DNA from: a virus | Taxonomy: Duplodnaviria; Heunggongvirae; Uroviricota; Caudoviricetes | Virus record (IMG/VR): IMGVR_UViG_3300006145_000003 | DNA: 64,000 nucleotides | Direction: 5' to 3' (one strand) | Shown: one piece after another, positions 6,201-50,549 of the stretch | How positions within the stretch are numbered: the first letter of the stretch is position 1 | Layout of the letters: every line of letters starts with the position of its first letter | The notes under the pieces: model-generated | What the model was told of the DNA's origin: nothing | What the model saw: the letters and a program-made list of their open reading frames with translations, nothing else | Databases searched by the model: none | Made by a program: the position numbers and the translations under genes

Positions 6201-6276
<76 letters not shown>

Positions 6277-6480: not shown

Positions 6481-6508
6481 AAATATTTAAGAAAGAGGTT
6501 GTGTTTGT

Positions 6509-9061: not shown

Positions 9062-9066
9062 AGTTT

Positions 9067-10314: not shown

Positions 10315-10415
10315 TCAACAAACGCAAACGAAACAACGTGTGTTTGGGGCGGCAGTGAGTCGCCCCTCAAATCTTTGAAATCAAAAAAATTCATTTATAA
10401 AAGGAGTATTCTACT

Positions 10416-10643: not shown

Positions 10644-10680
10644 GCCGACAAGTTCGTTATACATACCCACCTCCTAACGC

Positions 10681-10713
10681 AGAGGGACATCTAAATGATG
10701 TCCCTCTTTTATT
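10681..10713 (+). terminator. rho-independent terminator (agagggacat ctaa atgtccctct + TTTTATT)
   Basis: 10-bp perfect stem followed by T-run. Confidence 0.7.
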
Positions 10714-10715
10714 AT

Positions 10716-10800
10716 GAGGAATTGGCGGAATAGGTAGACGCGCCAGATTTAGGTTCTGGTGGTTTATACCGTATCGGTTCAAGTCCGATATTCCTCACCA
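10716..10800 (+). tRNA. tRNA-Leu (anticodon TAG), long variable arm, CCA encoded
   Basis: Acceptor GAGGAAT/ATTCCTC; anticodon stem CCAGA/TCTGG loop TTTAGGT; T-loop GGTTCAAGTCC. Confidence 0.8.
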
Positions 10801-10824
10801 AATTTTATAAATTGAGGTGTTAAT

Positions 10825-12357: not shown

Positions 12358-13289
12358 GTTGGAGGGTAGATATGAGCAAACCGATTAAGATAACGGAGCA
12401 GTTTCTAAATGAGTGTCGTGCTGATTTTGAAAAGGCACTCCAGCTAACGAAGTTAGCAGACGGGAAAATTTCGTTTACGAAATCTTTTTCTGCTGGGAAT
12501 GAGAAAGCAGCCATTTTGTTTGCACCGATTGCTTGGGCCAAGATGGTAATGCTCATCAAAGAATTCGATAAGGAAGTTGCTTGGCATGGTGTAGCGTTCC
12601 GCAGTGATAACACCGAAGCAAATGAATACATCATTAAGGATATCCTCGTCTATCCTCAGGAGGTTACGCAGACCACGGTAGAGATGGATACGGAGAAGTA
12701 TTCACAGTGGTTGATAGATAACATTGAGGATGAGCGATTCAATAACATCAGAATGCAAGGTCACTCCCATGTGAATATGGGGGTGACACCCTCATCGGTA
12801 GACCTAAATCATCAGGAGGAAATTCTGAACATGCTCGGCGATGATGACTTTTACATTTTTATGATTTGGAATAAGTCATTCGCCAGCTTCGCTAAGATTT
12901 ACGATATGAGAAAAAATCTCCTGTTTGAAAATGGTGATATAACTACCAAGGTAATTGGTGAGGGCGAGGATTTGGGCGAGTTTATCAAGGGTGCCAAGGG
13001 GATGGTGGAGACAAAATACACATACAACAGCACAGGTTATGGCCAATACGGTAATAACGGTTACTGCAATACTGGATATGGGTCATACCCCAATAATATC
13101 ATCGAGGCATCTTCTTATACACAGGGAAAAACCTCTGATGAAAAGAAAGACAAGAAGTCCGATGGTAAAAAGACTGAAAAAAAAGAAAAAAACAAAAAAG
13201 ATAAGCCGCGCACAAGAATTGGAGCTGGATGGCACGGGCTCAATAGCCAGGAAATAGAAGACCTGTATTCAAAGGGATACTATGACTAG
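12354..13289 (+). CDS. JAB/MPN (JAMM) metalloprotease-like protein with Lys-rich low-complexity C-terminus
   Basis: HSHVNMGVTPSSVD fits JAMM motif HxHx7Sx2D; overlaps upstream gene by 4 nt. Confidence 0.6.
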   Translation: MSWRVDMSKPIKITEQFLNECRADFEKALQLTKLADGKISFTKSFSAGNEKAAILFAPIAWAKMVMLIKEFDKEVAWHGVAFRSDNTEANEYIIKDILVYPQEVTQTTVEMDTEKYSQWLIDNIEDERFNNIRMQGHSHVNMGVTPSSVDLNHQEEILNMLGDDDFYIFMIWNKSFASFAKIYDMRKNLLFENGDITTKVIGEGEDLGEFIKGAKGMVETKYTYNSTGYGQYGNNGYCNTGYGSYPNNIIEASSYTQGKTSDEKKDKKSDGKKTEKKEKNKKDKPRTRIGAGWHGLNSQEIEDLYSKGYYD

Positions 13290-13296
13290 GAGGTAA

Positions 13297-13974
13297 ATGA
13301 CTATGGATTTGTCTAAAAGTTATGAGTATTTTCAGCCTGAGAAGGTGACCGAAAGAATCAATATTGTCGGTTGCGGTTCTGTGGGAGCTACTATCGCAGA
13401 GAATTTGGTGAGGCTTGGACTCACCAAAATTTCTTTGTGGGATATGGATGCCGTTACACCACACAATCTTGCCAATCAGATTTTCCGGCATAAAGATATT
13501 GGGCACGCAAAGGTCGAAGCGCTGGCGGACATTCTCACAGAGATAAATCCTGATATCCAAGACGACTTGAAACTGTTTTCTGATGGATGGAACGGTCAGC
13601 AGCTTAACGGGTACGTCTTTTTGTGCGTGGACAATATTGAGTTGCGGCGGCAGATTGTCGAGAAGCATCTCAATAATCCCTATGTCAAAGCAATGTTCGA
13701 CTTCCGCACATTACTGGAGTCTGCGCAGCATTATGCGGCGGATTGGTCTAACTACAAGATGAAAAAGGACTTTCTTAACTCCATGGCGTTCTCTCACGAA
13801 GAGGCGGCAGAAGAGACTCCTGTGTCGGCCTGTGGGGTTACTCTCGGTGTTGCGCCAACTGTACGGATGATATGTGCTTTTGGTGTAACAAATTTCGTGA
13901 ATTTTGTCAGAGGGAACGGTCTGAAGAAGATGATTCTTAATGATGCGTTCCACTATATGCTTGATGCTTTTTAG
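13297..13974 (+). CDS. ThiF/MoeB/E1-like adenylyltransferase (Rossmann GxGxxG)
   Basis: INIVGCGSVGATIAENLVRLGLTKISLWDMDAVTPHNLANQ matches E1/ThiF nucleotide-binding motif. Confidence 0.65.
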   Translation: MTMDLSKSYEYFQPEKVTERINIVGCGSVGATIAENLVRLGLTKISLWDMDAVTPHNLANQIFRHKDIGHAKVEALADILTEINPDIQDDLKLFSDGWNGQQLNGYVFLCVDNIELRRQIVEKHLNNPYVKAMFDFRTLLESAQHYAADWSNYKMKKDFLNSMAFSHEEAAEETPVSACGVTLGVAPTVRMICAFGVTNFVNFVRGNGLKKMILNDAFHYMLDAF

Positions 13975-14016
13975 GGTGTTTGCAACGACATTCTCCCTAT
14001 AAAACTATGATTTTAT

Positions 14017-14357
14017 CTTAAAACTGTAACGTATATCCTGTTAAGGAGCTTTACGCTATAAGCTAAAGTGTCAAATTGCTGGGGAAGATACCCGCCGGAA
14101 GGGAAGCACTCCGCTCCGGACGCACGTCGGAACCCACCGGTCAAAAGGCAACAGCAGCTCGCTAGGGCAATTCGCAATACAGCAAACAGAGGATATTTCG
14201 GAATCACCAGGAGTTTGAGCAACAAAAGTCGCAATATAACCCAAATGACTTCAGGAATAACCCGCCCAACTGCGGCGAGTCAGCAACCAACGCCGCAAAT
14301 ATCACAGCTAAACGGAGGCGTGCCCAGACCAATACTCTATGTTAGGTTACAGCTAAG
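14017..14357 (+). ncRNA. candidate retron msr/msd non-coding region bounded by inverted repeats a1 (cttaaaactgtaac) and a2 (gttacagctaag); interior strongly A/C-rich
   Basis: 11/12 complementary inverted repeats flank ~315 nt directly upstream of the RT start, the arrangement typical of retrons. Confidence 0.35.
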
Positions 14358-14373
14358 TAAAGGAGAGACTATT

Positions 14374-15534
14374 ATGGTGTTTATAACAGTTAGGCAGTCA
14401 CCATTTTATCATCAAATGTCCTTGGAGGAATATCTGTTTCAGAACTTTGAATCGCCAGTGCTTATCAATGAAAACACAGCAAACACCAGAACGTATCAGT
14501 GTCGCACTGTGAGCTCCAAGTTTTTGGACAAGATAAATGTAGATGGGCTGATTTCAAAGCTCAAAAGGTTCAATGATTCAACAACAGAGCTGCGCAAAGA
14601 AAATCGCGAATCTCTATATAAAACATTTTACATTCCAAAGAAGTCTGGTGGGTTGCGCAAAATAAACGCACCAAAGCCAGATTTGATGGACGCACTAAGG
14701 AGGCTGAAAAGAATCTTTGAAGATGATTTTCATGCACTTTACCATACATCAGCCTTCGCTTACATACAAAATCGATGCACTGTAGATGCTGTAAAGCGGC
14801 ATCAAAATAATAAGAGTAAGTGGTTCGGTAAGTTAGACTTACATGATTTCTTTGGAAGCACTACTCTAGAATTCGTGTTAAATATGTTCTCGCTGATTTT
14901 CCCATTTAGCGAAGTAGTTAAGGTTCCAGATGGAAAAGAGGCGCTTGTAACTGCACTAGAACTTGCATTTTTAGATGGTGGGTTGCCTCAAGGAACTCCT
15001 ATATCTCCAACTATAACAAACATTATGATGATTCCAATTGATTTCGAACTTACAAAGGCATTTCGAGAGTTTCAAGTTGGAGTACCTGGCAAGAAAAAGA
15101 CGCAAAGTTTCATATATACAAGATATGCCGATGATTTCATTATTTCATCGAAGTATGACTTCGATGTTCGGAAAATTGAAGAATTTGTTGTGAACACTTT
15201 GGAGAAGTATAACGCTCCATTCACAATCAATGCAAAGAAGACAAGATATGGCTCATCTGCTGGCAGAAATTGGAACTTGGGCGTTATGCTTAACAAGGAT
15301 AATGAAATTACAGTAGGACACAAACGTAAGAAACAGTTTCAAGCAATGATGTATAATTACGTAACTGATAAGCGCAATGGCGTTGAGTGGACTCGTGAAG
15401 ACCTGATGACGATGCATGGCTTGTACAGCTATTATAGGATGGTTGAAAAGGATGTGATAGACGCAATTGTAAAGCATATGAATGACAAATTGAACGCAGA
15501 TGTTATCGCCTTGATAAAAGGTGATTTAAGATAG
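14374..15534 (+). CDS. reverse transcriptase, retron-type
   Basis: IPKKSGGLRKI, LDLHDFFGS, LPQGTPISP, YTRYADD, NAKKT motifs (RT motifs 1-7); no maturase or endonuclease domain; RBS aaaggagag. Confidence 0.85.
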   Translation: MVFITVRQSPFYHQMSLEEYLFQNFESPVLINENTANTRTYQCRTVSSKFLDKINVDGLISKLKRFNDSTTELRKENRESLYKTFYIPKKSGGLRKINAPKPDLMDALRRLKRIFEDDFHALYHTSAFAYIQNRCTVDAVKRHQNNKSKWFGKLDLHDFFGSTTLEFVLNMFSLIFPFSEVVKVPDGKEALVTALELAFLDGGLPQGTPISPTITNIMMIPIDFELTKAFREFQVGVPGKKKTQSFIYTRYADDFIISSKYDFDVRKIEEFVVNTLEKYNAPFTINAKKTRYGSSAGRNWNLGVMLNKDNEITVGHKRKKQFQAMMYNYVTDKRNGVEWTREDLMTMHGLYSYYRMVEKDVIDAIVKHMNDKLNADVIALIKGDLR

Positions 15535-15843
15535 TACCTGTAATGCATAACTGTATAGACAGTGCTTCTCGTTGTAAACAGAAGTAACGCTTTGCTGGGC
15601 AAGGAAAGAACCTTGCGGAAAGTATCCCAGATGCCCCGACCCAGTCGACTACAGAGAGCCCAACTACCACCAAGTCATCCAATACCTAAACACATAAGCA
15701 ACACTATGGCTCCCATCGTCTCGACACTCAGGCCCGAAATGAAACGACCCCTTCACCACCTAGCCCCGCAGCAGAAACCTGCGTTTTAGAAGGACAGTCA
15801 CATACTCAGATTACAGGTTATCACAAATGAAAGGTGTGGTATT

Positions 15844-16188
15844 ATGACAAGAGACGAGTTTATTACGGCAGTAGAGGGTGGAAGAATTATCTATTGTTCT
15901 TGTATCGAAGAAAGAAATGATGTGTTACAATATCTGTTTGACTGTGACTTTAAAATAGGAGGAGCTTCACTTGGGTATCTGGAACCTGGCAATTGTGATG
16001 ATGAGTTTTTGAGCCCTGGATTTAACCAGAGCGCAGGATATATAAGTTGTTATAGGAACGCCGCTTTGGACAGAAGAATTCGCCTTATACACTATAATGA
16101 AATATCTTCACTTATCGAAGGGCCACCTCAAAATGAAATGTCAGATGATGAATTTAAAGAATCGCTATTAAACCTTATTGCTGGATAA
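15844..16188 (+). CDS. hypothetical protein (N-terminus MTRDEFI, paralogous to the start of 16394)
   Basis: ORF; shared N-terminal heptapeptide with 16394 product. Confidence 0.5.
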   Translation: MTRDEFITAVEGGRIIYCSCIEERNDVLQYLFDCDFKIGGASLGYLEPGNCDDEFLSPGFNQSAGYISCYRNAALDRRIRLIHYNEISSLIEGPPQNEMSDDEFKESLLNLIAG

Positions 16189-16200
16189 TTCCAGCAACAC

Positions 16201-16277
16201 GCAGCATTAGTGTTCAACGGTAAGCACACCAGTCTTCCAAACTGGGAGTGCCGGTTCAAATCCGGTATGCTGCTCCA
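16201..16277 (+). tRNA. tRNA-Gly (anticodon TCC)
   Basis: Acceptor GCAGCAT/ATGCTGC; anticodon stem CCAGT/ACTGG loop CTTCCAA; T-loop GGTTCAAATCC. Confidence 0.8.
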
Positions 16278-16283
16278 TAATAC

Positions 16284-16359
16284 TGGGCTGTCGCCAAGCG
16301 GTAAGGCAACGGACTTTGACTCCGTCATCTCGTGGGTTCGAATCCCGCCAGCCCAGCCA
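16284..16359 (+). tRNA. tRNA-Gln (anticodon TTG)
   Basis: Acceptor TGGGCTG/CAGCCCA; anticodon stem ACGGA/TCCGT loop CTTTGAC; resembles bacterial tRNA-Gln. Confidence 0.8.
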
Positions 16360-18720: not shown

Positions 18721-20235
18721 ATGATTCTATATAACCCATTGCTTTGTTTGGACTTTTACAAAACTGCCCATGCAGAGCAGTATCCGCAAACATTAACCAA
18801 AATGGTTTCTTACTATACGCCGCGAATGACCCGCTTGGAAGATACGGATAAGGTCACATTGTTTGGACTACAAGCGTTTATTAAGGAATTTCTTATTGAT
18901 GCGTTCAATATCAATTTCTTCTGGAAAAATTGGGAAGACGTACTTACGGAATATAAGCGTATTCTTAACGCCACCATCAATACGGATGGTATCGGAGAGA
19001 AACGGATGAAAGCACTGCACAACCTCAGGTATCTTCCTTTGGAGATTCGAGCTGTGCCAGAGGGTACTCGTACAAATATTAAGGTGCCACAGATTGAGAT
19101 TTCTAACACTCACCCGGATTTTGTATGGCTAGTCAACTCCATCGAAACCATGCTATCCTGTACCATGTGGCACACTCAGGTTTCCGCTGAGGTAGGATAC
19201 CGCTATCGTCAAATCGTCAATGAGTACGCCGAACGTACTTGTGATGATGGCACGGTTCGCGCAAGACTCCTTGGCGATTTTTCTATGCGCGGCCAGGAGA
19301 GTGCAGAAAGTGCAACTAAAAGCTCTGCTGCATTCTGTCTTAGCTTCCTGAATACAGCTACAGTTCCGGCCATCCTCTGGCTGGAGGACAACTATAACTG
19401 TGATTGTACCAAGGAGCAGGTTGCTTTCGGCGCTCTGTCCACAGAACACAGTGTGATGTGTTCGAACTATGCCATCGACGGCGATGAGATTACTCACATC
19501 AACCGACTTTTGACAGAGGTTTATCCGCATCAGAGTTTCTCTATGGTTAGCGATAGCTACGACTACTGGAATCTGGTGAACGAAATTCTACCCCAACTCA
19601 AGGATGAGATTCTGGCGCATGACGGTTGCTTGTCTATTCGCGGTGACAGCGGAGACCCTGTAGAAGTTGTTACTGAGACTGTATTTAGACTATGGGATAT
19701 CTTTGGCGGAACGGTCAACAGTAAAGGCTTTAAGGTTCTAAATCCTCATGTTAAGGCGTTGTATGGTGACAGCATTACACCCCGGCGCTGCAAGCAGATT
19801 TACGAAATCCTTGAGAACGCCGGGTTTGCCATTAACAATGTTGCTCTTGGTGTTGGTTCTTTCTCCATGCAATGTCTGGAGACAATTATCAGAAATGATG
19901 AGGGGCTAGCTGGTTATTCTGAGGTAAAAGCCTATGCGCCATATACTCGCGATACATTTGGTATCGCTGTTAAGGCCACATATGCCGAGGATGCTGATGG
20001 CAAGCCTATTATGATTTTCAAGAACCCCAAGACCGATACTGGACACTTTAAGAAGTCACAACGTGGTTGTTGCCGCGTGTATAAGGACGGTGACAACTAC
20101 ACCTATGAAGATGGCCTGACCTGGGCAGAAGCGCAAGGAAACAACGAGCTTCGGACGGTCTTCAAGAATGGTGAGTTTATCAAGACATACACACTATCCG
20201 AAGTACGCCAGAATCTTCACGGCGGACGGTTCTGA
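18721..20235 (+). CDS. nadV: nicotinamide phosphoribosyltransferase (Nampt/NadV)
   Basis: N-terminal DFYKTAH motif, ~500 aa; NAD-salvage neighbours. Confidence 0.8.
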   Translation: MILYNPLLCLDFYKTAHAEQYPQTLTKMVSYYTPRMTRLEDTDKVTLFGLQAFIKEFLIDAFNINFFWKNWEDVLTEYKRILNATINTDGIGEKRMKALHNLRYLPLEIRAVPEGTRTNIKVPQIEISNTHPDFVWLVNSIETMLSCTMWHTQVSAEVGYRYRQIVNEYAERTCDDGTVRARLLGDFSMRGQESAESATKSSAAFCLSFLNTATVPAILWLEDNYNCDCTKEQVAFGALSTEHSVMCSNYAIDGDEITHINRLLTEVYPHQSFSMVSDSYDYWNLVNEILPQLKDEILAHDGCLSIRGDSGDPVEVVTETVFRLWDIFGGTVNSKGFKVLNPHVKALYGDSITPRRCKQIYEILENAGFAINNVALGVGSFSMQCLETIIRNDEGLAGYSEVKAYAPYTRDTFGIAVKATYAEDADGKPIMIFKNPKTDTGHFKKSQRGCCRVYKDGDNYTYEDGLTWAEAQGNNELRTVFKNGEFIKTYTLSEVRQNLHGGRF

Positions 20236-33142: not shown

Positions 33143-33162
33143 CAGTGAGGGAGGGTATAGAA

Positions 33163-34368
33163 ATGGTTGAATTGCAAGGGAAGTACGCATCTGCAAAGGT
33201 ATTTACCAATATTGTTGATGAAGCATCCATATCGCAAGTAATAAATCTTTTGAACCAGCCTTACATCGATGGCAGCGTTGTCAGAATGATGCCAGATATT
33301 CATGCCGGGGCTGGCTGCACTATTGGCACGACAATGACTATCAAGGATAAGATTTGTCCTAATCTTGTTGGGGTTGATATTGGTTGCGGCATGGAGACAA
33401 TCCGAATTAAGGAGAACTTCATCGAACCAGCAAAACTTGATAAAGTAATTCGTGAGTTGATTCCATCTGGATTCAGTGTGCGTTCTACTAACCATAGGTT
33501 TGCAAATGACATAGACTTGTCAAAGCTATCTTGTGTGAAAAAGATAGACATAGACCGTGCATACAACAGCATAGGCACACTCGGTGGTGGCAATCATTTT
33601 ATAGAAGCCAATAAAGATGGAGATGAAAATATCTACATTATTGTCCACTCTGGCAGTCGTCATCTTGGCCTTGAAATTGCCAATTACTACCAGGAAGCGG
33701 CATACAATACTCTAACATCATATAGCAAAGAAGAGATTAACAGTATTATTAAGACGCTGAAAACTTCTGGACGCGCAAAAGAAATTCAAAATAAATTGAA
33801 AAAGCTGAAATCAAAAAGGTCTCCAGTTCCAAAGCAGTTAGCGTATGTGGAGGGCGAGCTTTTTGACCGATATATCCACGATATGAGAATAGCACAACAA
33901 TTTGCAGAGTTAAACCGTCAGGCAATGATGGACAGCATTGTTAATGGAATGGGACTCCATGTTATAGAACAGTTTACAACTATCCACAATTACATTGACA
34001 CAGATAATATGATTCTTCGAAAAGGTGCGGTTTCCGCCCAGAACGGGGAACGCTTGCTTATCCCCATAAATATGAGGGATGGTAGTTTACTTTGCACCGG
34101 CAAGGGTAATGAAGATTGGAACTTCTCCGCTCCTCATGGAGCAGGCCGACTAATGAGCCGCAGTGATGCAAAAGAAGCGTTTACAGTTTCTGAGTTCAAA
34201 CAACAAATGGAGGGTATCTATACAACATCTGTTGGACGCAGCACATTAGATGAGTGCCCCATGGCTTATAAGAGAATGGATGATATAGTTGGAAATATTG
34301 AGCCAACAGTAAGTGTTGATGCAGTTATCAGGCCAATATATAATTTCAAGTCTGGCGATGGAGAATAA
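33163..34368 (+). CDS. rtcB: RtcB RNA 3'-phosphate ligase
   Basis: MPDIHAGAGCTIGTT, GVDIGCGM, SAPHGAGR catalytic motifs; RBS gagggaggg. Confidence 0.85.
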   Translation: MVELQGKYASAKVFTNIVDEASISQVINLLNQPYIDGSVVRMMPDIHAGAGCTIGTTMTIKDKICPNLVGVDIGCGMETIRIKENFIEPAKLDKVIRELIPSGFSVRSTNHRFANDIDLSKLSCVKKIDIDRAYNSIGTLGGGNHFIEANKDGDENIYIIVHSGSRHLGLEIANYYQEAAYNTLTSYSKEEINSIIKTLKTSGRAKEIQNKLKKLKSKRSPVPKQLAYVEGELFDRYIHDMRIAQQFAELNRQAMMDSIVNGMGLHVIEQFTTIHNYIDTDNMILRKGAVSAQNGERLLIPINMRDGSLLCTGKGNEDWNFSAPHGAGRLMSRSDAKEAFTVSEFKQQMEGIYTTSVGRSTLDECPMAYKRMDDIVGNIEPTVSVDAVIRPIYNFKSGDGE

Positions 34369-34648: not shown

Positions 34649-35038
34649 TTGAGCAAAGAGTTTGTTTTTTTGAGTATGCTGTTTTTCCACATCGTGGACG
34701 ACTACTATCTCCAAGGTATCTTGGCTTCGATGAAACAGAAGAACTGGTGGGAAAACAACGCTCCACAGCGATTGTATAAGTATGACTATATAGTGGCGCT
34801 CATTATGCATAGTTTGAGCTGGGCTTTTATGATAATGCTGCCGATTGCAATACAAACTCACCTGAATGTCGGAAATGCCTTTCTCTGCGCCCTCATTGTC
34901 AATGCAATAGTACATGGTGTTGTGGATGACATTAAGGCCAATAAACTTAAGATTAACCTTATTATTGACCAGACAATTCATATCGTTCAAATAGTTGTAA
35001 CATTCATTATCAATGTGCATTTCTTGGGGGTGGTATAA
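34649..35038 (+). CDS. membrane protein (TTG start)
   Basis: Several hydrophobic helices. Confidence 0.45.
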   Translation: MSKEFVFLSMLFFHIVDDYYLQGILASMKQKNWWENNAPQRLYKYDYIVALIMHSLSWAFMIMLPIAIQTHLNVGNAFLCALIVNAIVHGVVDDIKANKLKINLIIDQTIHIVQIVVTFIINVHFLGVV

Positions 35039-35405: not shown

Positions 35406-36385
35406 ATGACTTTGGATAGCGTCATCGTTTCTGCCCCTGATAACTTTGTGATTCGAGATGCTCTTGCCAGATGCTTTGAGGTGGTGCAAGAGCACAGACA
35501 CATCGTGTGCTCTTGCAGCGGGGGGGCGACAGTGATGTGATGGTTGACCTGCTCTTGCGATGTGGTGCAGGTGAGAAAACGGATTTTGTGTTTTTCAACA
35601 CCGGACTTGAATATGTCGCCACCTTCGAGCATTTGGAAGAGATAGAGCGGAAATACGGGGTGTCAATCCACCGCATAGATGCTATTAAGCCAATTCCGAT
35701 ATGTGTGAAGGAGTATGGTGTTCCGTTTTGGAGTAAGTTCGCATCAGATATGATTCATCGCTTACAGCTGCACAATTTCCAGTGGGAGGACGAATCGTTC
35801 GATGTCCTTATTCAACGGTATCCAAGATGCAAAACCGCATTGGAATGGTGGTGTAACGTAATCACAGGAAACACCACACAATATGCAATCAAACGAATAC
35901 CATATCTGAAAGAGTTCATGATAATCAACCCGCCGTCATTCCGAATCTCTGATAAATGCTGTACATACGCAAAGAAGAAAGTGTCTGAGCGGTTCATTAA
36001 GAACGGTGACTATGACCTGTCTTGCATTGGTGTCAGGCAGTCGGAAGGCGGGATACGCTCCGCAACATACAAAACGTGTTTTTCAGATGGCGATGATATC
36101 GACCACTTCCGCCCAGTATTTTGGCTAAGGGACAATGATAAAGAGGAATATTGTGAGCACTATGGTGTCACACATAGCAGATGCTACACCCAGTATGGCT
36201 TAGCCCGTACTGGGTGTTTTGGTTGTCCATTCGGAAAGCGGTTTGAAGACGAGTTAAAGTCGATAGAGCAGCACGAACCTAAATTGCTCCGGGCCGCAAA
36301 TAGTATCTTCGGAGAGAGTTATGACTACACTCGCAGATACCTTGCATTCCGAGAAAAAATGAAGCGGAAGCAGAAGAAACAATAA
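35406..36385 (+). pseudogene. PP-loop ATP pyrophosphatase (PAPS-reductase/QueC-like family) with frameshift in G7 run 35520-35526
   Basis: Frame A ends HIVCSCSGGATVM*; frame B continues GGDSDVMVDLLL; one extra G gives CSCSGGGDSDVMV (SGGxDS PP-loop). Confidence 0.65.
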
Positions 36386-36433
36386 AACAGAACTTTTATA
36401 TCGTTAGATACAATGTCTCAAGGGGTAAGGTAT

Positions 36434-36643
36434 ATGATAAAAGTTGTAACAGGAGAACTGAGGGAAGCCGTTAAGCATATAGACGTTCCCAAAGTGCAGG
36501 ACTATGTGGCAGAATACAGGAACAAATGTATGGGACTTTGGTTCAGCAACACCCATGATGAACTGGAAGACTTCCTGCGGTTGCTGGAGCAGAACTTTGC
36601 CCGGGTGGACAGGTCGCTGGGGAAGCCAGCGACCGGGAGATGA
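36434..36643 (+). CDS. small hypothetical protein within GC-rich insertion
   Basis: RBS aaggggtaagg. Confidence 0.4.
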   Translation: MIKVVTGELREAVKHIDVPKVQDYVAEYRNKCMGLWFSNTHDELEDFLRLLEQNFARVDRSLGKPATGR

Positions 36644-36975
36644 TTTTTTGCTATGCCGGGATGATGAAAGGCATCTTGCAGGTGCTTCGGCAGATGCTGA
36701 AGGAAGAGGTCCGGAATGTGGATGTGGAAGAGCTGGCGGCGCTCCAGAGCGCAAAAACAGACCGAATCCTGCTATGCCTGTACAACCACCGCAGCGGCAT
36801 GGGAATGCGTCATGGGGAGCTGGCAGAGGCTGCAGACCTGTCCGGCAGCGCCCTGACCAACATGATGAAGCGGATTTTAAGTTCTGGCGCGGCAGATTGT
36901 ACCAGAATAGGAAAAAACGCCTGGTATATGCTGACAAAGGCTGGCCGGAGATACTGTGAATCGGTTATGATATAG
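36640..36975 (+). CDS. MarR-like winged-helix transcriptional regulator (in ~550-bp GC-rich island)
   Basis: RHGELAEAADLSGSALTNMMKRILSSG...WYMLTKAGRRY wHTH pattern; GC far above genome average. Confidence 0.5.
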   Translation: MIFCYAGMMKGILQVLRQMLKEEVRNVDVEELAALQSAKTDRILLCLYNHRSGMGMRHGELAEAADLSGSALTNMMKRILSSGAADCTRIGKNAWYMLTKAGRRYCESVMI

Positions 36976-36998: not shown

Positions 36999-37514
36999 AT
37001 GTATCGGATAAGAGAAGGCGTATTTGAAACAAATTCTAGCAGCACACATAGCATCTGCATAACAACGAATCGCCGAACCTCAATGTGTCATCCAGAGCAC
37101 GTTCATTTCCGATGTGACGAATTCGGATGGGAGTGGCGAAGGCTTGATACCGTGGATGAAAAGGCTGCATATCTATATTCAAGCATGGTTCTTTTACTCA
37201 ATCAAAGGGAACTTCAAAAATCAACGGAGCATATTATGGACACTTTATATCGGTTCGGAATAACTTGCACCTTTGATGAACCGGAATATAATGACCTTGG
37301 TTCCGGGTTCAGATATTGCTCTAACGCTGATATCGACCACTGTGGTGCAGATGAGCATCGAAATTTCGTGTCTAAAACTATCTATAATGAAGGCAGACTT
37401 GTACGCTACCTTTTTTCAAGAGATAGCTTTGTTTTGACTGGTAATGACAACCAAGATGGAAGTGTTGCTGTTAATGTAAAATATCCGCACGAAACATTTT
37501 ACAAAGGATGCTAG
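36999..37514 (+). CDS. paralog 1 of GVFETNSSSTHSI family (171 aa)
   Basis: Shared N-terminal motif with next two genes. Confidence 0.55.
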   Translation: MYRIREGVFETNSSSTHSICITTNRRTSMCHPEHVHFRCDEFGWEWRRLDTVDEKAAYLYSSMVLLLNQRELQKSTEHIMDTLYRFGITCTFDEPEYNDLGSGFRYCSNADIDHCGADEHRNFVSKTIYNEGRLVRYLFSRDSFVLTGNDNQDGSVAVNVKYPHETFYKGC

Positions 37515-37525
37515 GAGGTATACAT

Positions 37526-37813
37526 ATGAAACAAGTTAGACAAGGCGTTTTTGAGACAAACAGCAGTTCAACGCACAGTATTACAATTTGTACAAAGGAA
37601 GAATATGAGAAGTTCAAAGCCGGTGAGCTAATGTGTGACAGCTATGGTGGAGGAATGAAACCAACCTCTGAAGTAGAACGAGATGAAGACGGGTATTGCA
37701 GGTTTGAAACTTATGAAACTCTTGGCGGCGACTGGCTTGAAAACGATATAACTCCTTTCACTACGCCAAGTGGCGATGAAATGGTGGCAATCTGTACATA
37801 TGGACATGATTGA
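37526..37813 (+). CDS. paralog 2 of GVFETNSSSTHSI family
   Basis: N-terminal MKQVRQGVFETNSSSTHSITICT; C-terminal TPSGDEMVAICTYGH shared with paralog 3. Confidence 0.55.
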   Translation: MKQVRQGVFETNSSSTHSITICTKEEYEKFKAGELMCDSYGGGMKPTSEVERDEDGYCRFETYETLGGDWLENDITPFTTPSGDEMVAICTYGHD

Positions 37814-37838
37814 GTCATAGTGCGGGAGGGCATTAGGA

Positions 37839-38138
37839 ATGAAACAAATTAGAAAAGGTGTATTTGAAACTAACAGCAGTTCTACGCATTCAATTACGAT
37901 TTGTACCGACGAAGAGTACAGGGAATTTATCAAAGGAAACTTGATGTATGATAAATTTGACGAAACTCTTGTTCCATTTTCAAAAGATGATTTGGATTCG
38001 AAGCAGTACAGGTATAGTGATTTCAAACGTCTAGGCAATGTTATTGATGACATAAGCCTCGAAACATACAAGCATGAGTTTGTGACTCCGAGCGGAGACA
38101 AGATGGTCGCATTTGGTACGTATGGATATAATGGGTAA
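37839..38138 (+). CDS. paralog 3 of GVFETNSSSTHSI family
   Basis: MKQIRKGVFETNSSSTHSITICT ... TPSGDKMVAFGTYGY. Confidence 0.55.
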   Translation: MKQIRKGVFETNSSSTHSITICTDEEYREFIKGNLMYDKFDETLVPFSKDDLDSKQYRYSDFKRLGNVIDDISLETYKHEFVTPSGDKMVAFGTYGYNG

Positions 38139-38154
38139 ATAGGAGGATGAAGGA

Positions 38155-39072
38155 ATGAACCTGTTAGGAGAATATCAAAATGGGAACTACACAGTGAGCA
38201 TCTTTGATGATGGTACCAAAGTAAGGAAAAATGAGTTGGATTTCTTTGAGCCAGATTATCCAGAGTCTATGGATATCAAAATTACAAACTCCTGTGATAT
38301 GATGTGCCCTTTTTGCCACGAGGCTTCAACGCCAAATGGGAAACACGGTGATATATTGAACCTCCCATTTTTGGATTCGTTACTGCCATATACAGAGCTG
38401 GCTATCGGAGGAGGAAACCCTCTGTCACATCCAGACTTAGTTCCATTTCTCCAAGGCTTGAAAGATAGAAAGCTTATTGCAAATATGACGGTAAATCGGG
38501 TTCATTTCCTGAACAATATACCCCTACTTCAAGAGTTGGTAAACAGGAATCTGATTTATGGGTTAGGCATATCCTTTATCTCTGGCACACCGCTTGAGCA
38601 GGTTTCACATTTAGTGCGTGAAGCCAGCAAATTTTCCAATGCGGTGTTTCATGTTATAAACGGGCTTGTGACTCTAAGAGAGTTATCGGAAATGTCTGGA
38701 GCCAATGCCAAGGTTCTGATTCTAGGGTATAAGCAATTCCGCAGGGGAAAGGAAAACTATAAAGCCCAAGCCGACCAGATTCAAAGCAGGCAGGATGATT
38801 TGTATGATTATCTTCCAATGATAGTCAATGATAGCTGGTTCGATGTGGTAAGTTTTGACAACCTAGCAGTGAAGCAGCTTGACGTGAGTAGGTTGGTCAG
38901 TCCATCTGCGTGGGAGGAGCAGTACATGGGAGACGATGGAAGTTTTACGATGTATGTGGATGCGGTTAACCGAGAGTATGCAGTATGTTCTGTTTCGAAA
39001 GAACGGTATCCCATCACAGGTAACATCAAGGAGATGTTTGGCACCGTAAGAGGTAAGCACGGGGGTGATTGA
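38155..39072 (+). CDS. radical SAM enzyme (CxxxCxxC)
   Basis: ITNSCDMMCPFCHE and glycine-rich LAIGGGNPL SAM motif. Confidence 0.75.
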   Translation: MNLLGEYQNGNYTVSIFDDGTKVRKNELDFFEPDYPESMDIKITNSCDMMCPFCHEASTPNGKHGDILNLPFLDSLLPYTELAIGGGNPLSHPDLVPFLQGLKDRKLIANMTVNRVHFLNNIPLLQELVNRNLIYGLGISFISGTPLEQVSHLVREASKFSNAVFHVINGLVTLRELSEMSGANAKVLILGYKQFRRGKENYKAQADQIQSRQDDLYDYLPMIVNDSWFDVVSFDNLAVKQLDVSRLVSPSAWEEQYMGDDGSFTMYVDAVNREYAVCSVSKERYPITGNIKEMFGTVRGKHGGD

Positions 39073-39076
39073 TACC

Positions 39077-39538
39077 ATGGGGTATTATGATGAATGTTTA
39101 GATGATTTGCGCTCACTAATTCCATCTGGTGAAATGAAACAAGTTATGTTTCAGCGTGAATGTGAACTTGCGGAAAATTTTCTAGGGTTTATTCATGTAT
39201 ATAAGGCTCTAAGTGTGGTGATACCCAAAAGCAAAATAGTAATTGATTTCGGATGTTATCTTGCAGCACAAAGTTATTATTTTGCAGAACACAATAAGTA
39301 TATTGGCGTTGACACGGTACAGTTAAAAAGGTTTTCGCCTAAGAATGCGGTTCACTATGTGATGTCCATCCAGGAGTTCATAAAAAATGAATTAGAAACT
39401 TTATTTTCCGCCAATGACCCAATGGACTTTTTTGCAATTTGTTCTTTTGTTCCGGACGACAATGCAACAAAACTTGTAAGAGAAACCTTTCCTAATGTGT
39501 GCTGCTACTATCTTTCTACCGAAAAGGTTAGTATATAA
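39077..39538 (+). CDS. hypothetical protein, possibly SAM-methyltransferase-like
   Basis: KIVIDFGCYLAAQSYYF vaguely resembles MTase motif I; weak. Confidence 0.3.
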   Translation: MGYYDECLDDLRSLIPSGEMKQVMFQRECELAENFLGFIHVYKALSVVIPKSKIVIDFGCYLAAQSYYFAEHNKYIGVDTVQLKRFSPKNAVHYVMSIQEFIKNELETLFSANDPMDFFAICSFVPDDNATKLVRETFPNVCCYYLSTEKVSI

Positions 39539-40525: not shown

Positions 40526-41425
40526 TTAAACATCCAAAAAGGCATCCAATATATCAAAGTACTTATTGAAGTTATTAAACACGTTATTGCTATACGGAAA
40601 AGAAATGCTAATTGAAAATTTCTCGGCATCTTGCACATTGATGGAGAAGTCTATAGGAAAATCTGTTGTAGTAAGGGTGTACTCTTTCTTTTCTCCATTG
40701 TCTGCAGTGAGCAGAACCTGGGCTTCTCCATTAAATCCGCTACCAAAACCTCCAGAAGTTGGTGAAATATCATCAAAACAAATCTTCCCTGATAACTCAT
40801 GATACTTTTTTTCAAGATTATATATTATTTCAAATGGAGTATAACCACAAACAGATATAGTGTTGTCATATGAAATTCCACCAGCCGCAGCAGTAAAACC
40901 CTTTTCGAATCCACTTCCCTGCAACGTACTAAAATCACTATTTACAATGTAACCATGTGTATCAACAGTTTTTGCTAATGTAGCAGAGGAGAGCGGAGTG
41001 AGGGGTTGGAGAGTAGGTTCTGGAAGCGGTTCAGAAACAGAAGATTGTTGTTTGAGCTTTGAATTTTCTTCGGACAAGGAGGAAAGTTGTTTTTCCAGCT
41101 CAGAACGTTCTGATTGCAAGGCGGAAACAGTATCCTCTAAAACTCGCTTTTCGACTTCGAGTTTTGAAGTTAAGGACTTATAATCTTCACTCTCTGACAT
41201 TACATTGTTTAACGTGGCATTATAATAAACATTGATGTTTTCTCCCTCAATGTTTTTAACGCCTTCAAGTTTTTCAATAGTTTCTTCTTGAATTGTAATT
41301 TGTCCATCTTCAAATCCTTCAGAATATCCTATGTTTTGACCAACGACAAAAGAAGGGATGATTCCAATGAGGGCAGTGATAACAGGTATAATCTTTTTGA
41401 TTATAAATTCTGTGTCTTTTTTCAT
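40526..41425 (-). CDS. membrane-anchored coiled-coil protein (N-terminal TM)
   Basis: Minus-strand RBS aagggaagga; TM IIPVITALIGIIPSFVV then coiled coil. Confidence 0.6.
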   Translation of the reverse strand: MKKDTEFIIKKIIPVITALIGIIPSFVVGQNIGYSEGFEDGQITIQEETIEKLEGVKNIEGENINVYYNATLNNVMSESEDYKSLTSKLEVEKRVLEDTVSALQSERSELEKQLSSLSEENSKLKQQSSVSEPLPEPTLQPLTPLSSATLAKTVDTHGYIVNSDFSTLQGSGFEKGFTAAAGGISYDNTISVCGYTPFEIIYNLEKKYHELSGKICFDDISPTSGGFGSGFNGEAQVLLTADNGEKKEYTLTTTDFPIDFSINVQDAEKFSISISFPYSNNVFNNFNKYFDILDAFLDV

Positions 41426-41892: not shown

Positions 41893-42975
41893 TTGACAAA
41901 TCATGACCGGAAAGAGAGTGCTCGGAATGAAATTCGTTCGGCCTTTGAAAACAAGGGACGAGTTGAATATATCCCCCCGTCGGAACCAATGGCCAAGTCA
42001 AATAATGAGAAACATAGGCTGAAGGTTGCAGTTTATTGTAGAGTAAGTACAGATAATTTGAACCAAGCTGGTAGCTATGAATTACAGATTCAAACTTATA
42101 AGGAGTATGTTTCATCTCATCCAGAATGGGAGTTGGTTGAGATTTATGCAGATGGAGGGATTTCAGGCACATCAACACGGCATAGAGTAGCTTTTAATAA
42201 AATGATTGAAGATTGTAAAGCAGGAAAAACCGATATGATAATCACAAAGAGCATTTCAAGGTTCGCAAGGAATGTAGTAGACTGTGTTTCGATAGTACGG
42301 TCATTAAAGTCTTTGAATCCACCAGTTGCCGTTCTGTTTGAAGACGTTAATATTAACACACTAACCCAGACGGGCGAACTGTTAATGGTGGTGATGGCGG
42401 CTCTTGCCCAAGGAGAATCCGAAGCTAAGTCTGTAAGTGTTAAATGGGGATTTAGGAGAAGGTTTGAAGCTGGAATCCCGAAAATATCGCCTTTATATGG
42501 ATTTGAAAAGGATGGTAGAAATCTATATGTCAATGAAACCGAAGCAGCCGTGGTACGACTAATGTTTCAAATGTTCGATGATGGATATAGTATATCTGAC
42601 ATTTGTGTGGTTTTAAATTCCCGAAATATTCTTTCGCCGAAGGGTGTACAATGGAGCTATTCAACTGTTAAAAATATATTGCACAATGAGAAGTATTGTG
42701 GAGATGTGATAATGCAGAAAACCGTATGCGTAGATATGTTTTCACATAGGTCAGTGCCAAATACAGGACAAGCTGGAAAGTATAAAATGGAAAACTATCA
42801 TGCTCCAATTGTTGAAAAGACACAATGGGAACGGATACAAAAAAAGCTGGAAAAAAATAAGTCAACTCATCAGGATGCTTGGAGGTATTGGCTAGAGGAA
42901 CAAGGTGTTGGCGACGAGCGGCCAGCTATACTTAACAATTTCATTCAAATAAAGAATCGCCGAAGGGGGAAATAA
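41893..42975 (+). CDS. serine recombinase (resolvase/integrase family)
   Basis: VAVYCRVSTDNLNQ catalytic Ser motif, SYELQ, recombinase domain GYSISDICVVLN. Confidence 0.85.
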   Translation: MTNHDRKESARNEIRSAFENKGRVEYIPPSEPMAKSNNEKHRLKVAVYCRVSTDNLNQAGSYELQIQTYKEYVSSHPEWELVEIYADGGISGTSTRHRVAFNKMIEDCKAGKTDMIITKSISRFARNVVDCVSIVRSLKSLNPPVAVLFEDVNINTLTQTGELLMVVMAALAQGESEAKSVSVKWGFRRRFEAGIPKISPLYGFEKDGRNLYVNETEAAVVRLMFQMFDDGYSISDICVVLNSRNILSPKGVQWSYSTVKNILHNEKYCGDVIMQKTVCVDMFSHRSVPNTGQAGKYKMENYHAPIVEKTQWERIQKKLEKNKSTHQDAWRYWLEEQGVGDERPAILNNFIQIKNRRRGK

Positions 42976-48213: not shown

Positions 48214-49258
48214 AATCAAGAAAATGTTAGATGGTCATGATTATGACTTTCTTAGAACTAATGAACATCTTAAAGACAGGATAGTATTCCTAACACTGGG
48301 CGGAAGTTATTCATACGGTACCAACATAGAATCATCTGATGTAGATATTAGGGGTTGCGCCCTTAATTCGCCATCTGACTTGCTAGGACTTTCACATTTT
48401 GAGCAGGTTGTCAATACTGAAACTGACACAACTGTATATAGCTTTAATAAGCTAATTAGTTTGTTGCTAGATTGTAATCCAAATACAATTGAGATGTTAG
48501 GATGTAAGCCGGAACATTACATGTATCTTTCTGATATTGGAAAAGAATTGATTGATAACAGACAAATGTTTCTGTCCCGTAGGGCGGTACATGCTTTTGG
48601 AGGATATGCAAATCAGCAGTTACGAAGGCTTGAAAATGCTATCGCAAGAGATAGAATGGAACAGTCGAGAAAAGAGGAACACATTTTAGCCTCATTGAAA
48701 AATTCTGTCCATGCTTTCGAAAAGAAGTATACTACCTTTGAAAATGGAAGTTTGACACTCTATACTTCTGATAGCACCAGAGATGACCTGGATAGAGAGA
48801 TTTTTGCGAACATACATATTGATGGATATCCAGCTCGCCAGTTCACCAGTATCCTCAATGACCTTTCATTGGTGATTAAGGACTATGAAAAGCTTAATAA
48901 GCGGAATCACAAGAAAGATAGCAACCATCTCAATAAGCACGCGATGCATTTGGTGAGGCTCTATCTCACCTGTTTTGACATACTTGAAAGAAAAGAGATA
49001 GTAACATATCGTGAAAATGACCTTGAACTTTTGAAAAGTGTTCGAAGAGGAGATTATCAGAATGAAGACGGCACATATCGTCAGGAGTTTTTTGAGATAG
49101 TAAACTCATTTGAACAGAGGTTGAACTATGACAAAGAGAACAACGACCTACCAGACAGTCCAGATATGAAAAAGGTTGAAGAATTTGTTATGAGTGTGAA
49201 TAGGAGGGTGGTTGATGGGCTGTGTGTGCATTCCGAACGGAGCTCAGAACATCATTGA
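48200..49258 (+). CDS. Pol-beta-superfamily nucleotidyltransferase of unknown specificity
   Basis: GGSYSYGTNIESSDVDIRG = G[GS]x9-13DxD NTase motif. Confidence 0.55.
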   Translation: MTVSEIKKMLDGHDYDFLRTNEHLKDRIVFLTLGGSYSYGTNIESSDVDIRGCALNSPSDLLGLSHFEQVVNTETDTTVYSFNKLISLLLDCNPNTIEMLGCKPEHYMYLSDIGKELIDNRQMFLSRRAVHAFGGYANQQLRRLENAIARDRMEQSRKEEHILASLKNSVHAFEKKYTTFENGSLTLYTSDSTRDDLDREIFANIHIDGYPARQFTSILNDLSLVIKDYEKLNKRNHKKDSNHLNKHAMHLVRLYLTCFDILERKEIVTYRENDLELLKSVRRGDYQNEDGTYRQEFFEIVNSFEQRLNYDKENNDLPDSPDMKKVEEFVMSVNRRVVDGLCVHSERSSEHH

Positions 49259-50549
49259 TACATTAGAAGCATCAGGTTATGAAGCGTATGTTGTTGGTGG
49301 ATGTGTGAGAGATAGTCTGCTTGGGATAGTTCCCCACGACTGGGATATATGTACAAGCGCAGTTCCAAGCGAAATAGAATCGTGCTTTGAAGACCGAAGA
49401 ATTGTTGAAACTGGACTCCAACATGGAACAATAACAATCATTGAAGATGGTGTTAGTTATGAGGTTACAACATTCCGAATCGATGGGAAATACAGCGATT
49501 CTAGGCATCCAGATAAAGTCACTTATACAAAGGACATAGATAGTGACTTGTCCAGGAGAGATTTCACCTTTAATGCGATGGCATATAACGAGCGGGTTGG
49601 ATTGATTGACCCATTTGGTGGAGCATTTGACCTAATACGTGGGGAAATATCCTGCGTTGGAAACGCAAATGATAGATTCAAAGAGGATGCCTTGCGAATT
49701 ATGAGGGCGCTGCGGTTTGCATCAACGTATGGTTTTACCATATCAGAAAGAACCAACGAGGCTATTCATATTAACAAAAAACTCCTAAACAATATTGCAG
49801 CTGAAAGGATTCGTGAAGAGCTATGTAAAATTGTAATGGGGAGAGGTGTTCTTGGGGTGTTGCTCAACTATAGCGACATCATTGCAACTATTATTCCAGA
49901 GATTGAGCCATGTATAGGATTCCAGCAGAATAATCCATATCACCAATATACAGTGTACGACCATATCGCTCATGCCGTTTCCAATTATTCTGGTGATGAC
50001 CAGTCGGTTAAGTTAGCGTTGTTACTTCATGATATAGGTAAGCCCCTTTGTTACACGGGGGATGAAAAGGGTGGACATTTTTATAGGCATGGAGTATATT
50101 GTCATGATGTCGCAGAAAAAGTTATGGAAAGACTGCGATTTGATAACAGAACCGCTGACGAAGTTCTCACGCTTGTTCTGTACCACGATGCAATAATTGA
50201 ACCAACGACTAAGGCCATAAAGCGGTGGCTTAACAAAATCGACCCGCAAAGGTTTTGTCAACTTATGGACGTGCGAATGGCAGATATCTTAGCTCATACG
50301 AAGGGTACACAGGCATCAAGAGTTGATAAGTGCAATATGGTCAAGGCGGTTCTTGAGCAGGTAATTGAGGAGGAACAATGTTTTTCAATATCTGACCTAG
50401 CTATAAACGGACATGATATTATGGACTTGGGGGTTCCAGAAGGCAAACGGGTTGGTGAGGTTTTGAAAAAACTCCTAGATGTCGTAATTGCAGAAGATAT
50501 CGAGAATGAACATACGGCCTTGGTTGAGTATGCGAAGAGGTATGTATGA
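49215..50549 (+). CDS. cca: CCA-adding tRNA nucleotidyltransferase with HD domain
   Basis: VGGCVRDSLLG, RRDFTFNAMA, HD motif HDIGKP. Confidence 0.85.
   Translation: MGCVCIPNGAQNIIDTLEASGYEAYVVGGCVRDSLLGIVPHDWDICTSAVPSEIESCFEDRRIVETGLQHGTITIIEDGVSYEVTTFRIDGKYSDSRHPDKVTYTKDIDSDLSRRDFTFNAMAYNERVGLIDPFGGAFDLIRGEISCVGNANDRFKEDALRIMRALRFASTYGFTISERTNEAIHINKKLLNNIAAERIREELCKIVMGRGVLGVLLNYSDIIATIIPEIEPCIGFQQNNPYHQYTVYDHIAHAVSNYSGDDQSVKLALLLHDIGKPLCYTGDEKGGHFYRHGVYCHDVAEKVMERLRFDNRTADEVLTLVLYHDAIIEPTTKAIKRWLNKIDPQRFCQLMDVRMADILAHTKGTQASRVDKCNMVKAVLEQVIEEEQCFSISDLAINGHDIMDLGVPEGKRVGEVLKKLLDVVIAEDIENEHTALVEYAKRYV

Follow-up and report, generated by a model that had tools for sequence, protein, structure and literature searches.

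A conserved phage gene cassette pairing a radical SAM enzyme with proteins that share an N-terminal tag

Tagged genes and a radical SAM gene in the window

The window, which is the whole stretch of 64,000 nucleotides of viral DNA that was analysed, carries three genes for proteins with a common N-terminal tag, followed by a gene for a radical SAM enzyme (rSAM). These genes, their diagnostic segments and the ORF beyond them are as follows.

36999-37514, + strand: long-type tagged protein, class L1, 171 aa; tag and globular domain, ending in YPHETFYKGC
37011-37055, + strand: tag of the long protein, residues R5-I19, REGVFETNSSSTHSI
37526-37813, + strand: short-type tagged protein 1, 95 aa; tag, EEYxKFxxGEL, variable acidic middle, then TPSGDEMVAICTYGHD
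37538-37582, + strand: tag of short protein 1, RQGVFETNSSSTHSI
37839-38138, + strand: short-type tagged protein 2, 99 aa, with the C-terminal end TPSGDKMVAFGTYGYNG
37851-37895, + strand: tag of short protein 2, RKGVFETNSSSTHSI
38155-39072, + strand: radical SAM enzyme, 305 aa; three-stranded sheet at the N-terminus (residues 3-25), then the rSAM core, with a cysteine-free beta-hairpin and helix at the C-terminus
38293-38316, + strand: codons of the [4Fe-4S] motif C47-x3-C51-x2-C54 (CDMMCPFC), the family's only invariant cysteines
39065-39538: ORF of 157 aa, outside the cassette

A GGAGG-type ribosome-binding site lies ahead of each tagged ORF, with spacers of 11, 25 and 16 nt, and the rSAM gene begins 16 nt past the third of them. 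Short protein 2, directly upstream of the rSAM gene, occupies the short type's usual slot. For short-type protein 1, an upstream ATG at 37508 is an alternative start.

The first-pass annotation had reported a near-identical N-terminus in the three genes, and this was confirmed: residues 7-19, GVFETNSSSTHSI, form a run of 13 residues identical in the ORFs starting at 36999, 37526 and 37839, and beyond this run M1, R5, I21 and T23 are also identical in all three. Since the codons for 7-10 of the 13 identical residues differ between copies, including switches between TCN and AGY serine codons, the identity of the tags is due neither to chance nor to recent gene conversion. The same amino acids are encoded by largely different codons, and the tag is thus under purifying selection. 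The common C-terminus of the two short ORFs was likewise found as annotated (TPSGD.MVA..TYG, preceded by a divergent middle). The description of the genes as three paralogs holds for the N-terminal tag, but past approximately 22 residues the 171-aa protein and the two short proteins have no detectable homology. The 157-aa ORF, previously called MTase-like, gave no match in Pfam, PHROGs, NCBIfam or PADLOC and had no homologue in 89 related loci, so that the label is unsupported and the ORF is not counted as a member of the cassette.

Distribution of the tag and its coupling to the enzyme

Across phages the tag spans approximately 22 residues, M-x-Q-I/V-R-x-x-V-F-E-T-N-S-S-S-T-H-S-I/L, with a constant start at residue ~9 and the form RxxVFETNSSSTHS almost invariant. 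R(-4), F, T, the third S and H, all of which the search pattern left unforced, are invariant in 293 unique tagged proteins. The tag has no conserved glycine, as position -2 can be G, N, S or M. A profile of the first 35 residues recovered at least 4,545 tagged clusters (50% identity). In the 150 matches listed the tag is N-terminal; a few other offsets look like mis-called starts. An internal tag in P0265, the sole internal match inspected, was rejected as a frameshift read-through from a Long gene into a Short gene. Profile searches, which had been proposed in the first-pass annotation as a check, placed the motif in no known family, and a literature search on the tag motif strings found nothing relevant. 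Carriers include phages of Clostridia, Bacilli and Bacteroidota from gut and rumen, the Lak megaphages, a phage of a bloom-forming cyanobacterium and a phage of a thermophile.

Tagged genes were present at 44 of 48 dereplicated rSAM loci, with one to six per locus, on the same strand and at a median of 0.9 kb upstream. When loci were retrieved solely by a DNA pattern for the tag and counted where at least 2.5 kb of flank was available on both sides, an rSAM was found at 57 of 59 viral loci and at 68 of 71 loci from genome bins. Both search directions, by rSAM and by motif, put co-occurrence at approximately 96% of the loci that have enough flank, and this tight genetic coupling supports a functional link between the tagged proteins and the enzyme. 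The usual architecture is Long-Short-rSAM, with one of each in about half of the architectures; L-S-S-R, S-R and L-R also occur, as do loci with up to six tagged genes per rSAM. Even at extreme divergence the link is kept, as in Microcystis cyanophage Ma-LMM01 (gp130/gp128), in the Lak megaphages, with four tagged genes downstream, and in Rhodothermus phage RM378, whose rSAM has 24% identity and a partner carrying STNSSSSHS. The four cassette genes in the window, whose DNA showed no nucleotide similarity to known phages, are one copy of this conserved and previously undescribed phage operon, here with two Short genes.

The cassette is set among replication and nucleotide-metabolism or repair genes of lytic-type large phages. 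Neighbours recurring among the 48 loci were an AAA_33 kinase with HD (23/48), RNA ligase (10/48), Thg1 (7/48) and RlaP (6/48), along with cysteine desulfurase, AAA_24 and DnaB; none of the recurrent neighbours was a protease or peptidase, an exporter or ABC transporter, or an immunity gene. In RM378 the kinase/HD gene p110 adjoins the cassette. In the window RtcB lies 2.6 kb upstream, eight tRNA genes and a CCA-adding enzyme are found elsewhere, and the major head gene, at 29240, is approximately 7 kb away. A literature search for a link between phage rSAMs and RNA repair found nothing relevant.

The radical SAM enzyme and the two tagged families

The CX3CX2C motif that serves as the criterion of the radical SAM superfamily is present in the enzyme as C47, C51 and C54, invariant in alignments of 16 and 34 sequences, and a partial (beta/alpha)6 TIM-barrel core is also present. 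PF04055 gave 22.4 bits against the window rSAM, the gathering threshold being 29.5, and many homologues at 56-65% identity have a precomputed PF04055 match. Residues 31-282 aligned to positions 5-270 of 288 in phrog_16999 ('Fe-S oxidoreductase') with an E-value of 3.6e-48. No cysteine outside CX3CX2C is conserved in either alignment, meaning that the auxiliary-cluster cysteines of SPASM and twitch enzymes are absent, and in the structural model the C-terminal hairpin (267-276) and helix (291-302) bear no ligands. The model lies nearest to the peptide- or protein-modifying maturases SkfB, SuiB, EpeE, anSME and ChlB, placing the predicted fold closer to peptide maturases than to rSAMs that modify RNA or nucleotides. 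Curated NCBIfam maturase models (e.g. WgkB, ScmE, HxsC, N_Twi_rSAM) scored 13-19 bits against cut-offs of 170-650, and the top NCBIfam match was NrdG2 at 20.6 bits against a 131-bit cut-off. A standard QueE or NrdG identity, which had been raised in the first-pass annotation together with classification by HMM, was rejected along with MoaA, as the enzyme scored far under the equivalog cut-offs of all three. Remote relatives of approximately 23% identity and 384 aa occur in the T4-like phages RB16, RB43 and KP15.

The partners of the rSAM range from 95 to 240 aa overall and belong to two families, a long form of approximately 170 aa and a short form of approximately 95-155 aa, for which hhalign gave a probability below 1% of homology beyond the first ~22 residues. 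For the same reason, a resemblance by eye between VAFGxYGYD of the short forms and FxxGEFGWE of the long forms is not claimed. The long form matched phrog_28997, of unknown function, over residues 3-170 (5-164 of 165, E-value 1.8e-24), and the match of the short forms to it was confined to the first ~22 residues (residues 3-24 in short protein 1). The tag is therefore portable, carried by two families that are detectably alike in nothing else. The long form is modelled as a conserved globular domain (pLDDT 90) and its superfamily keeps the further enzyme-like motifs KAxYLY, (V/I)DH and TGNDN/DNDN; the C-terminal end is YYKGN in long forms and VAFGxYGYDG in short forms, which are conserved at both ends around a hypervariable acidic middle. 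Within the long-form model the pLDDT of residues 1-11 is under 50, as would be expected of a segment ordered only with a partner, while tag residues 15-22 form a core beta-strand, suggesting that only part of the tag is free. The tagged proteins fell into no family in Pfam, NCBIfam, PADLOC or PDB sequence profiles, and the long-form model had no structural relatives, the search of BFVD returning only an uncharacterised homologue. Neither family has been named or has a Pfam entry or structure.

Possible roles of the cassette

A widespread cassette of an rSAM and tagged proteins is most likely a new phage protein-modification system. The form of this that we favour, at roughly even confidence, is that the single-cluster rSAM is a dedicated maturase modifying the tag of its co-encoded client proteins. 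The first-pass annotation had offered protein substrates for the rSAM as its alternative; the genetic coupling and the maturase-like fold bring this to the fore, and the modification itself is a prediction. Clients would be recognised by the shared ~22-residue tag, whose hydrophobic and basic first half (IRxxVF) would dock on the rSAM, possibly by adding a strand to the enzyme's conserved three-stranded sheet at the N-terminus. This would bring the invariant polar loop T-N-S-S-S-T-H-S to the SAM/[4Fe-4S] site, where the 5'-deoxyadenosyl radical would abstract a hydrogen from the loop and install the modification. Among reactions that could run with no auxiliary cluster, or with no more than a simple return of the electron, the candidates are oxidation of Ser, giving an aldehyde or a dehydro residue, formation of an intramolecular cross-link, and epimerisation. 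Two unrelated client families may then have the modified loop as their functional centre, one an enzyme-like domain of ~170 aa whose fold has no known relative, the other the ~95-155-aa protein with its hypervariable acidic middle. The varying number of clients, from one to six, also speaks for one enzyme serving several proteins. We infer that the tag is the substrate, and the docking mode and chemistry given here are to be read in the same way.

Several points weigh against a maturase. The evidence behind it consists of genomics and models, and in the long-form model tag residues 15-22 lie inside a core strand. In addition, a run of eight polar residues that stays invariant in phages whose hosts belong to different phyla is better conserved than recognition leaders usually are, a pattern typical of loops that catalyse or bind a ligand. 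The fixed order and number of genes that prevail (Long, Short, rSAM) would also fit a multi-subunit enzyme or pathway, in which the tagged proteins are partners of the rSAM rather than its substrates, the invariant loop is a shared motif for catalysis or for binding a ligand, metal or nucleic acid, or else a docking peptide, and the target of the complex is a nucleotide, tRNA or DNA, possibly as part of RNA repair or modification in the phage. We consider this a genuine contender, though on balance doubtful. The enzyme-like motifs of the long superfamily, the near-invariant polar loop, the RNA-repair genes that recur close by and the lack of an auxiliary cluster all agree with it, but the short family is too small and its middle too variable for an enzyme, the motif sits at the extreme N-terminus of two families without detectable homology, each rSAM has between one and six tagged genes, and the predicted fold of the rSAM is nearer to peptide maturases than to rSAMs acting on RNA or nucleotides. 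The RNA-repair neighbours, moreover, may mirror the shared ancestry of many gut-phage contigs and not function.

Among known systems, the SPASM/twitch peptide maturases with their precursors (SkfB/SkfA, SuiB/SuiA, EpeE(YydG)/YydF, ChlB) also have an enzyme gene beside one or several ribosomal products with a common conserved N-terminus, and an extra N-terminal sheet before the rSAM core. The phage enzyme differs from them in having neither auxiliary-cluster cysteines nor a winged-helix RRE and in scoring far below the cut-offs of the NCBIfam maturase models; its partners are proteins, one type of them folded, rather than short leader-core peptides, and the cassette is phage-borne, presumably intracellular, and has no protease or exporter. 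PqqE/PqqA/PqqD and mycofactocin MftC/MftA/MftB similarly place the rSAM gene next to those of a small ribosomal product and another small protein, whereas the phage cassette has no PqqD-like RRE protein, SPASM cysteines or downstream processing enzymes, and its partners are much larger, with conserved C-terminal domains. A classical RiPP cassette, as the first-pass annotation had suggested, in which the N-terminus is a leader and the variable core is modified by the rSAM, cleaved and released as a bioactive peptide, is in our view highly improbable. It would account for the hypervariable middle between conserved ends in the short forms, for several precursor-like genes per rSAM and for a fold closest to SkfB and SuiB, but the polar loop of the putative leader is the most conserved segment, the C-termini are conserved too, and the long form is modelled as a confident globular domain of 170 aa. 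The recurrent neighbours and the replication region of lytic-type phages in which the cassette lies do not suit a released peptide either, nor do the missing SPASM/twitch cysteines.

A sorting signal unrelated to the rSAM would recall the capsid-targeting sequences of T4 internal proteins, which are also short conserved N-termini on unrelated small phage proteins encoded in tandem; a prohead protease would cut after VFE, which we take to resemble the hydrophobic-x-Glu sites at which such proteases of the T4 type cleave. To this we give hardly any credence, since it leaves the co-occurrence with the rSAM in both directions unexplained, the most invariant residues (TNSSSTHS) lie past the putative cleavage site, and the segment is tied to an rSAM gene, among replication and repair genes, and not to head genes. 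A glycyl-radical scheme, in which the rSAM would act as an activase and leave a stable radical on small proteins (for example in VAFGxYGYDG of the short forms), as in PFL-AE or NrdG with GrcA, PFL or NrdD, was rejected as very improbable: the partners have no GRE fold and no RVxG[FWY] loop in common. The enzyme is indeed small and single-cluster, lies beside a folded protein and has NrdG2 as its best, weak match, and the short forms do have a conserved Gly-rich, aromatic C-terminal segment, but that match is far under its cut-off, the long forms lack the VAFG.YG end, and what all partners have in common is the tag, with no conserved glycine.

Returning to the maturase for tagged clients, a parallel is anSME, where one rSAM serves several paralogous or unrelated clients and a short invariant Ser-containing motif near the N-terminus is both modification site and active site. 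The phage system is alike in having one rSAM and several clients with such a motif; unlike in anSME, the rSAM has no SPASM domain, and the tagged proteins do not show the C/S-x-P-x-R of alkaline-phosphatase-fold sulfatases; an aldehyde here is a speculation. More speculatively still, and we think rather unlikely, the rSAM may turn T-N-S-S-S-T-H-S into a protein-derived group (aldehyde, dehydro residue or cross-link) that activates a phage-specific superfamily of at least 4,545 clusters, including an enzyme of unprecedented fold, in RNA repair or counter-defence; this would be a previously unknown post-translational modification. If the tag is indeed modified by a dedicated maturase, the cassette would represent a new rSAM-dependent protein modification that needs no auxiliary Fe-S clusters and is directed by a portable tag at the N-terminus of folded proteins instead of peptides. 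Cassettes of this kind are common and broadly distributed, with thousands of tagged sequence clusters, and so small a system could reveal new radical chemistry and a new enzyme fold and, given its frequent RNA-repair neighbours, a new layer of phage-host conflict.

The cassette and its genomic surroundings

The window is a portion of a large phage genome, and no deposited phage is related to it at the nucleotide level. It encodes a major head protein, Nampt, DNA ligase, DnaB and a Pol III alpha-type polymerase, among others, and nearly everything lies on a single strand. Five closely spaced plus-strand ORFs occupy 36999-39538.

Table. ORFs called in the cassette region.
36999-37514, plus strand: Long-type tagged ORF, 171 aa
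37526-37813, plus strand: Short-type tagged ORF 1, 95 aa
37839-38138, plus strand: Short-type tagged ORF 2, 99 aa
38155-39072, plus strand: radical SAM (rSAM) ORF, 305 aa, with motifs CDMMCPFC and GGGNP
39065-39538, plus strand: fifth ORF, 157 aa

Each ORF is preceded by a GGAGG-type ribosome-binding site, with spacers of 11-25 nt; the last two overlap by 8 nt, and no outstanding promoter-like or terminator-like site was found within the block. This L-S-S-R order is a variant of the Long-Short-rSAM cassette in which the Short gene is duplicated. The first-pass annotation had placed an rSAM gene with these two motifs after the tagged genes, which was borne out. Its MTase-like label for the fifth ORF was not upheld, as that ORF matched no family in any library searched and had no homologue in the related loci.

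The near-identical N-terminus (the tag) reported for the three tagged genes was also found: residues 7-19 (GVFETNSSSTHSI) are identical, as are M1, R5, I21 and T23, and both short proteins carry the C-terminal TPSGD.MVA..TYG previously noted. In any pairwise comparison of the copies, codons differ at 7-10 of the 13 identical tag residues, TCN/AGY serine switches among them, so tag identity is maintained by protein-level selection and does not stem from recent duplication or conversion.

Shortly upstream of the cassette lie genes for an RtcB RNA ligase (33145-34368) and a DUF3307 membrane protein (34649-35038), followed by a PAPS-reductase-like PP-loop protein (35507-36385) with weak BrxP and SspD matches; homologues of the DUF3307 and PAPS-reductase proteins were found again in about 9-10 related loci. 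Several long ORFs overlap on both strands of a local GC-rich stretch at 36404-36975, where the likeliest gene, directly 5' of the cassette, encodes a 111-aa MarR-like protein (36640-36975; Pfam MarR E 0.0025, under cut-off). The sole sizeable minus-strand gene nearby (40526-41425) encodes a protein of 299 aa that has a coiled coil and, at its N-terminus, a membrane anchor; next comes a 360-aa serine-recombinase-like ORF (41893-42975). With eight tRNA genes in 5022-16359 (Glu, two Leu, Ser, Pro, Met, Gly, Gln), a CCA-adding enzyme (49212-50549) and RtcB, the phage has a sizeable translation and RNA-repair toolkit. A 488-aa ORF (14068-15534) matches PHROGs labelled polymerase and reverse transcriptase (phrog_2825, E 2.5e-38; phrog_1423, E 2e-10). 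The gene at 18721-20235 codes for nicotinamide phosphoribosyltransferase over its full length (phrog_448, E 7.5e-158) and is of an NAD-salvage type linked to countering NAD-depleting defences.

The tag and the proteins that carry it

BLAST clustering of tag-trimmed proteins gave two groups, a long superfamily and a short family. Long subclass L1 ends in YYKGN, L2 contains VDGDE and L3 ends in DNDNH, with FGW, KAxYLY, (V/I)DH and (G/D)NDN common to all three. Short proteins comprise the tag, EEYxKWxxGEL, an acidic linker that varies in length by up to about 90 residues, and (Y/F)TTPSGDxIVAFGxYGYDG. The short VAFGxYGYD resembles the long FxxGEFGWE by eye, but not significantly. Profile-profile comparison of the trimmed groups gave a probability below 1%. 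The three window genes, earlier described as paralogs, have the tag in common; long and short proteins have no detectable homology beyond it. At least two families therefore carry the tag, which makes it a portable module.

R(-4), F(0), T(+2), S(+6) and H(+8) never vary among 293 unique tagged proteins, although the search pattern did not impose these residues, and the initiator Met lies 8-9 residues ahead of the tag F. A profile search with the first 35 residues alone (E <=0.001) matched 4,545 cluster representatives (50% identity) of 1.84 billion. The tag was N-terminal among the 150 matches listed, a few small offsets resembling mis-called starts, and the single internal match inspected was a frameshifted Long-into-Short read-through. 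In six contigs from related loci (L057 5612-5713, L058, L060, L067, L077 and L078) the Short gene ends after 33 codons at the A-run GGAAAAATAA, and the +1 frame resumes to the normal end, ...TTPKGEDVVAFGYCGYDG; this could be a homopolymer sequencing error, a pseudogene or programmed frameshifting.

Co-occurrence of tagged genes and rSAM

The PHROG family of the 171-aa protein is phrog_28997 (unknown function) and that of the rSAM is phrog_16999; members of the two adjoin each other in several distant phages. Microcystis phage Ma-LMM01 encodes both types (gp130 and gp128, respectively), and in all Lak megaphages the rSAM is followed by four tagged genes downstream. The rSAM of Rhodothermus phage RM378, Rm378p108, shows only 24% identity; Rm378p106 begins MKAFIRFGLSTNSSSSHS and retains DFGWE, CDH and GGNDN.

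Searching with an rSAM alignment gave 80 IMG/VR loci, or 48 after dereplication at 90% identity, and 44 of these carry one to six same-strand tagged genes, whose median distance upstream of the rSAM is 0.9 kb. Loci were also picked solely by a DNA pattern encoding VFETNSSSTH. Among 80 such viral loci the rSAM was present in 57 and absent from two that had 2.5 kb or more of sequence on each side, the other 21 being truncated. The same pattern had 96 genuine matches in 185,579 species genomes (rSAM present in 68, absent in 3, 25 truncated), nearly all on MAG contigs of Clostridia, Bacilli and Bacteroidota from the gut or rumen. Long-Short-rSAM is the commonest order; 108 distinct architectures include L1-S-R (32), S-R (12), L3-S-R (10) and L2-S-R (6).

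The rSAM enzyme and the proposed function of the cassette

The rSAM family is large (6,651 matches), and the CX3CX2C trio are its only conserved cysteines. Against the curated NrdG, MoaA, SPASM maturase and HxsC models the enzyme scored far under the cut-offs, and PDB sequence profiles cover only the first ~100 core residues. Its AF2 model (pLDDT 90.5) starts with a three-stranded sheet that is conserved (residues 3-25, motif NGNY...DGTK.R), then has six beta/alpha units, a long helix and a C-terminal hairpin and helix. Pseudotevenvirus and Slopekvirus phages conserve a remote 384-aa relative with about 23% core identity, which occurs in Escherichia phage RB16 (related locus L209, 3827-4981) and in some 160 T4-like phages of Klebsiella, Enterobacter and Cronobacter.

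With moderate confidence, we regard the rSAM as a putative maturase acting on tagged client proteins: a single enzyme would recognise the tag common to several clients and then act on it. This reading is based on the near-obligate coupling of rSAM and tag genes, the portable, strictly N-terminal tag under purifying selection, the fact that the tagged genes accompanying an rSAM vary in number, the maturase-like rSAM fold, and the disordered tag start in an isolated long-form model. In the main rival reading, which we think rather unlikely, Long, Short and the rSAM would be the subunits of one fixed enzyme whose substrate is a nucleotide or RNA. The fixed gene order, enzyme-like motifs of the long form, extreme invariance of the tag loop and lack of auxiliary clusters in the rSAM fit such an enzyme, as do recurrent RNA-repair neighbours. 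Within 6 kb of the cassette in the 48 loci, an AAA_33 kinase and HD gene was found in 23, RNA ligase in 10, Thg1-like in 7 and RlaP in 6 (examples from related loci: L081 3949-4875, L023 2262-3440, L065 8030-8863, L069 1545-2354, L089 2262-3347); the RM378 HD-plus-kinase gene p110 adjoins the cassette on the opposite strand, and a cysteine desulfurase is nearby in 8 related loci. However, this recurrence could reflect either functional linkage or the common ancestry of many gut-phage contigs.

The nearest working analogy to a maturase with tagged clients is anSME with the sulfatases, a system in which the many clients of one rSAM carry a short, invariant motif with a Ser, and this motif serves as target and active site alike. 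The cassette has no defining feature of anSME/sulfatase, RiPP or glycyl-radical systems; it is filed under none of them. Classical RiPP, capsid-targeting and glycyl-radical readings are each highly improbable, the first being close to the RiPP-like arrangement raised in the first-pass annotation; the remaining probability is given to no particular reading. The cassette is a widespread, unnamed phage system of two or three components, and the arrangement first noticed is real and far more general than was visible from the window alone.
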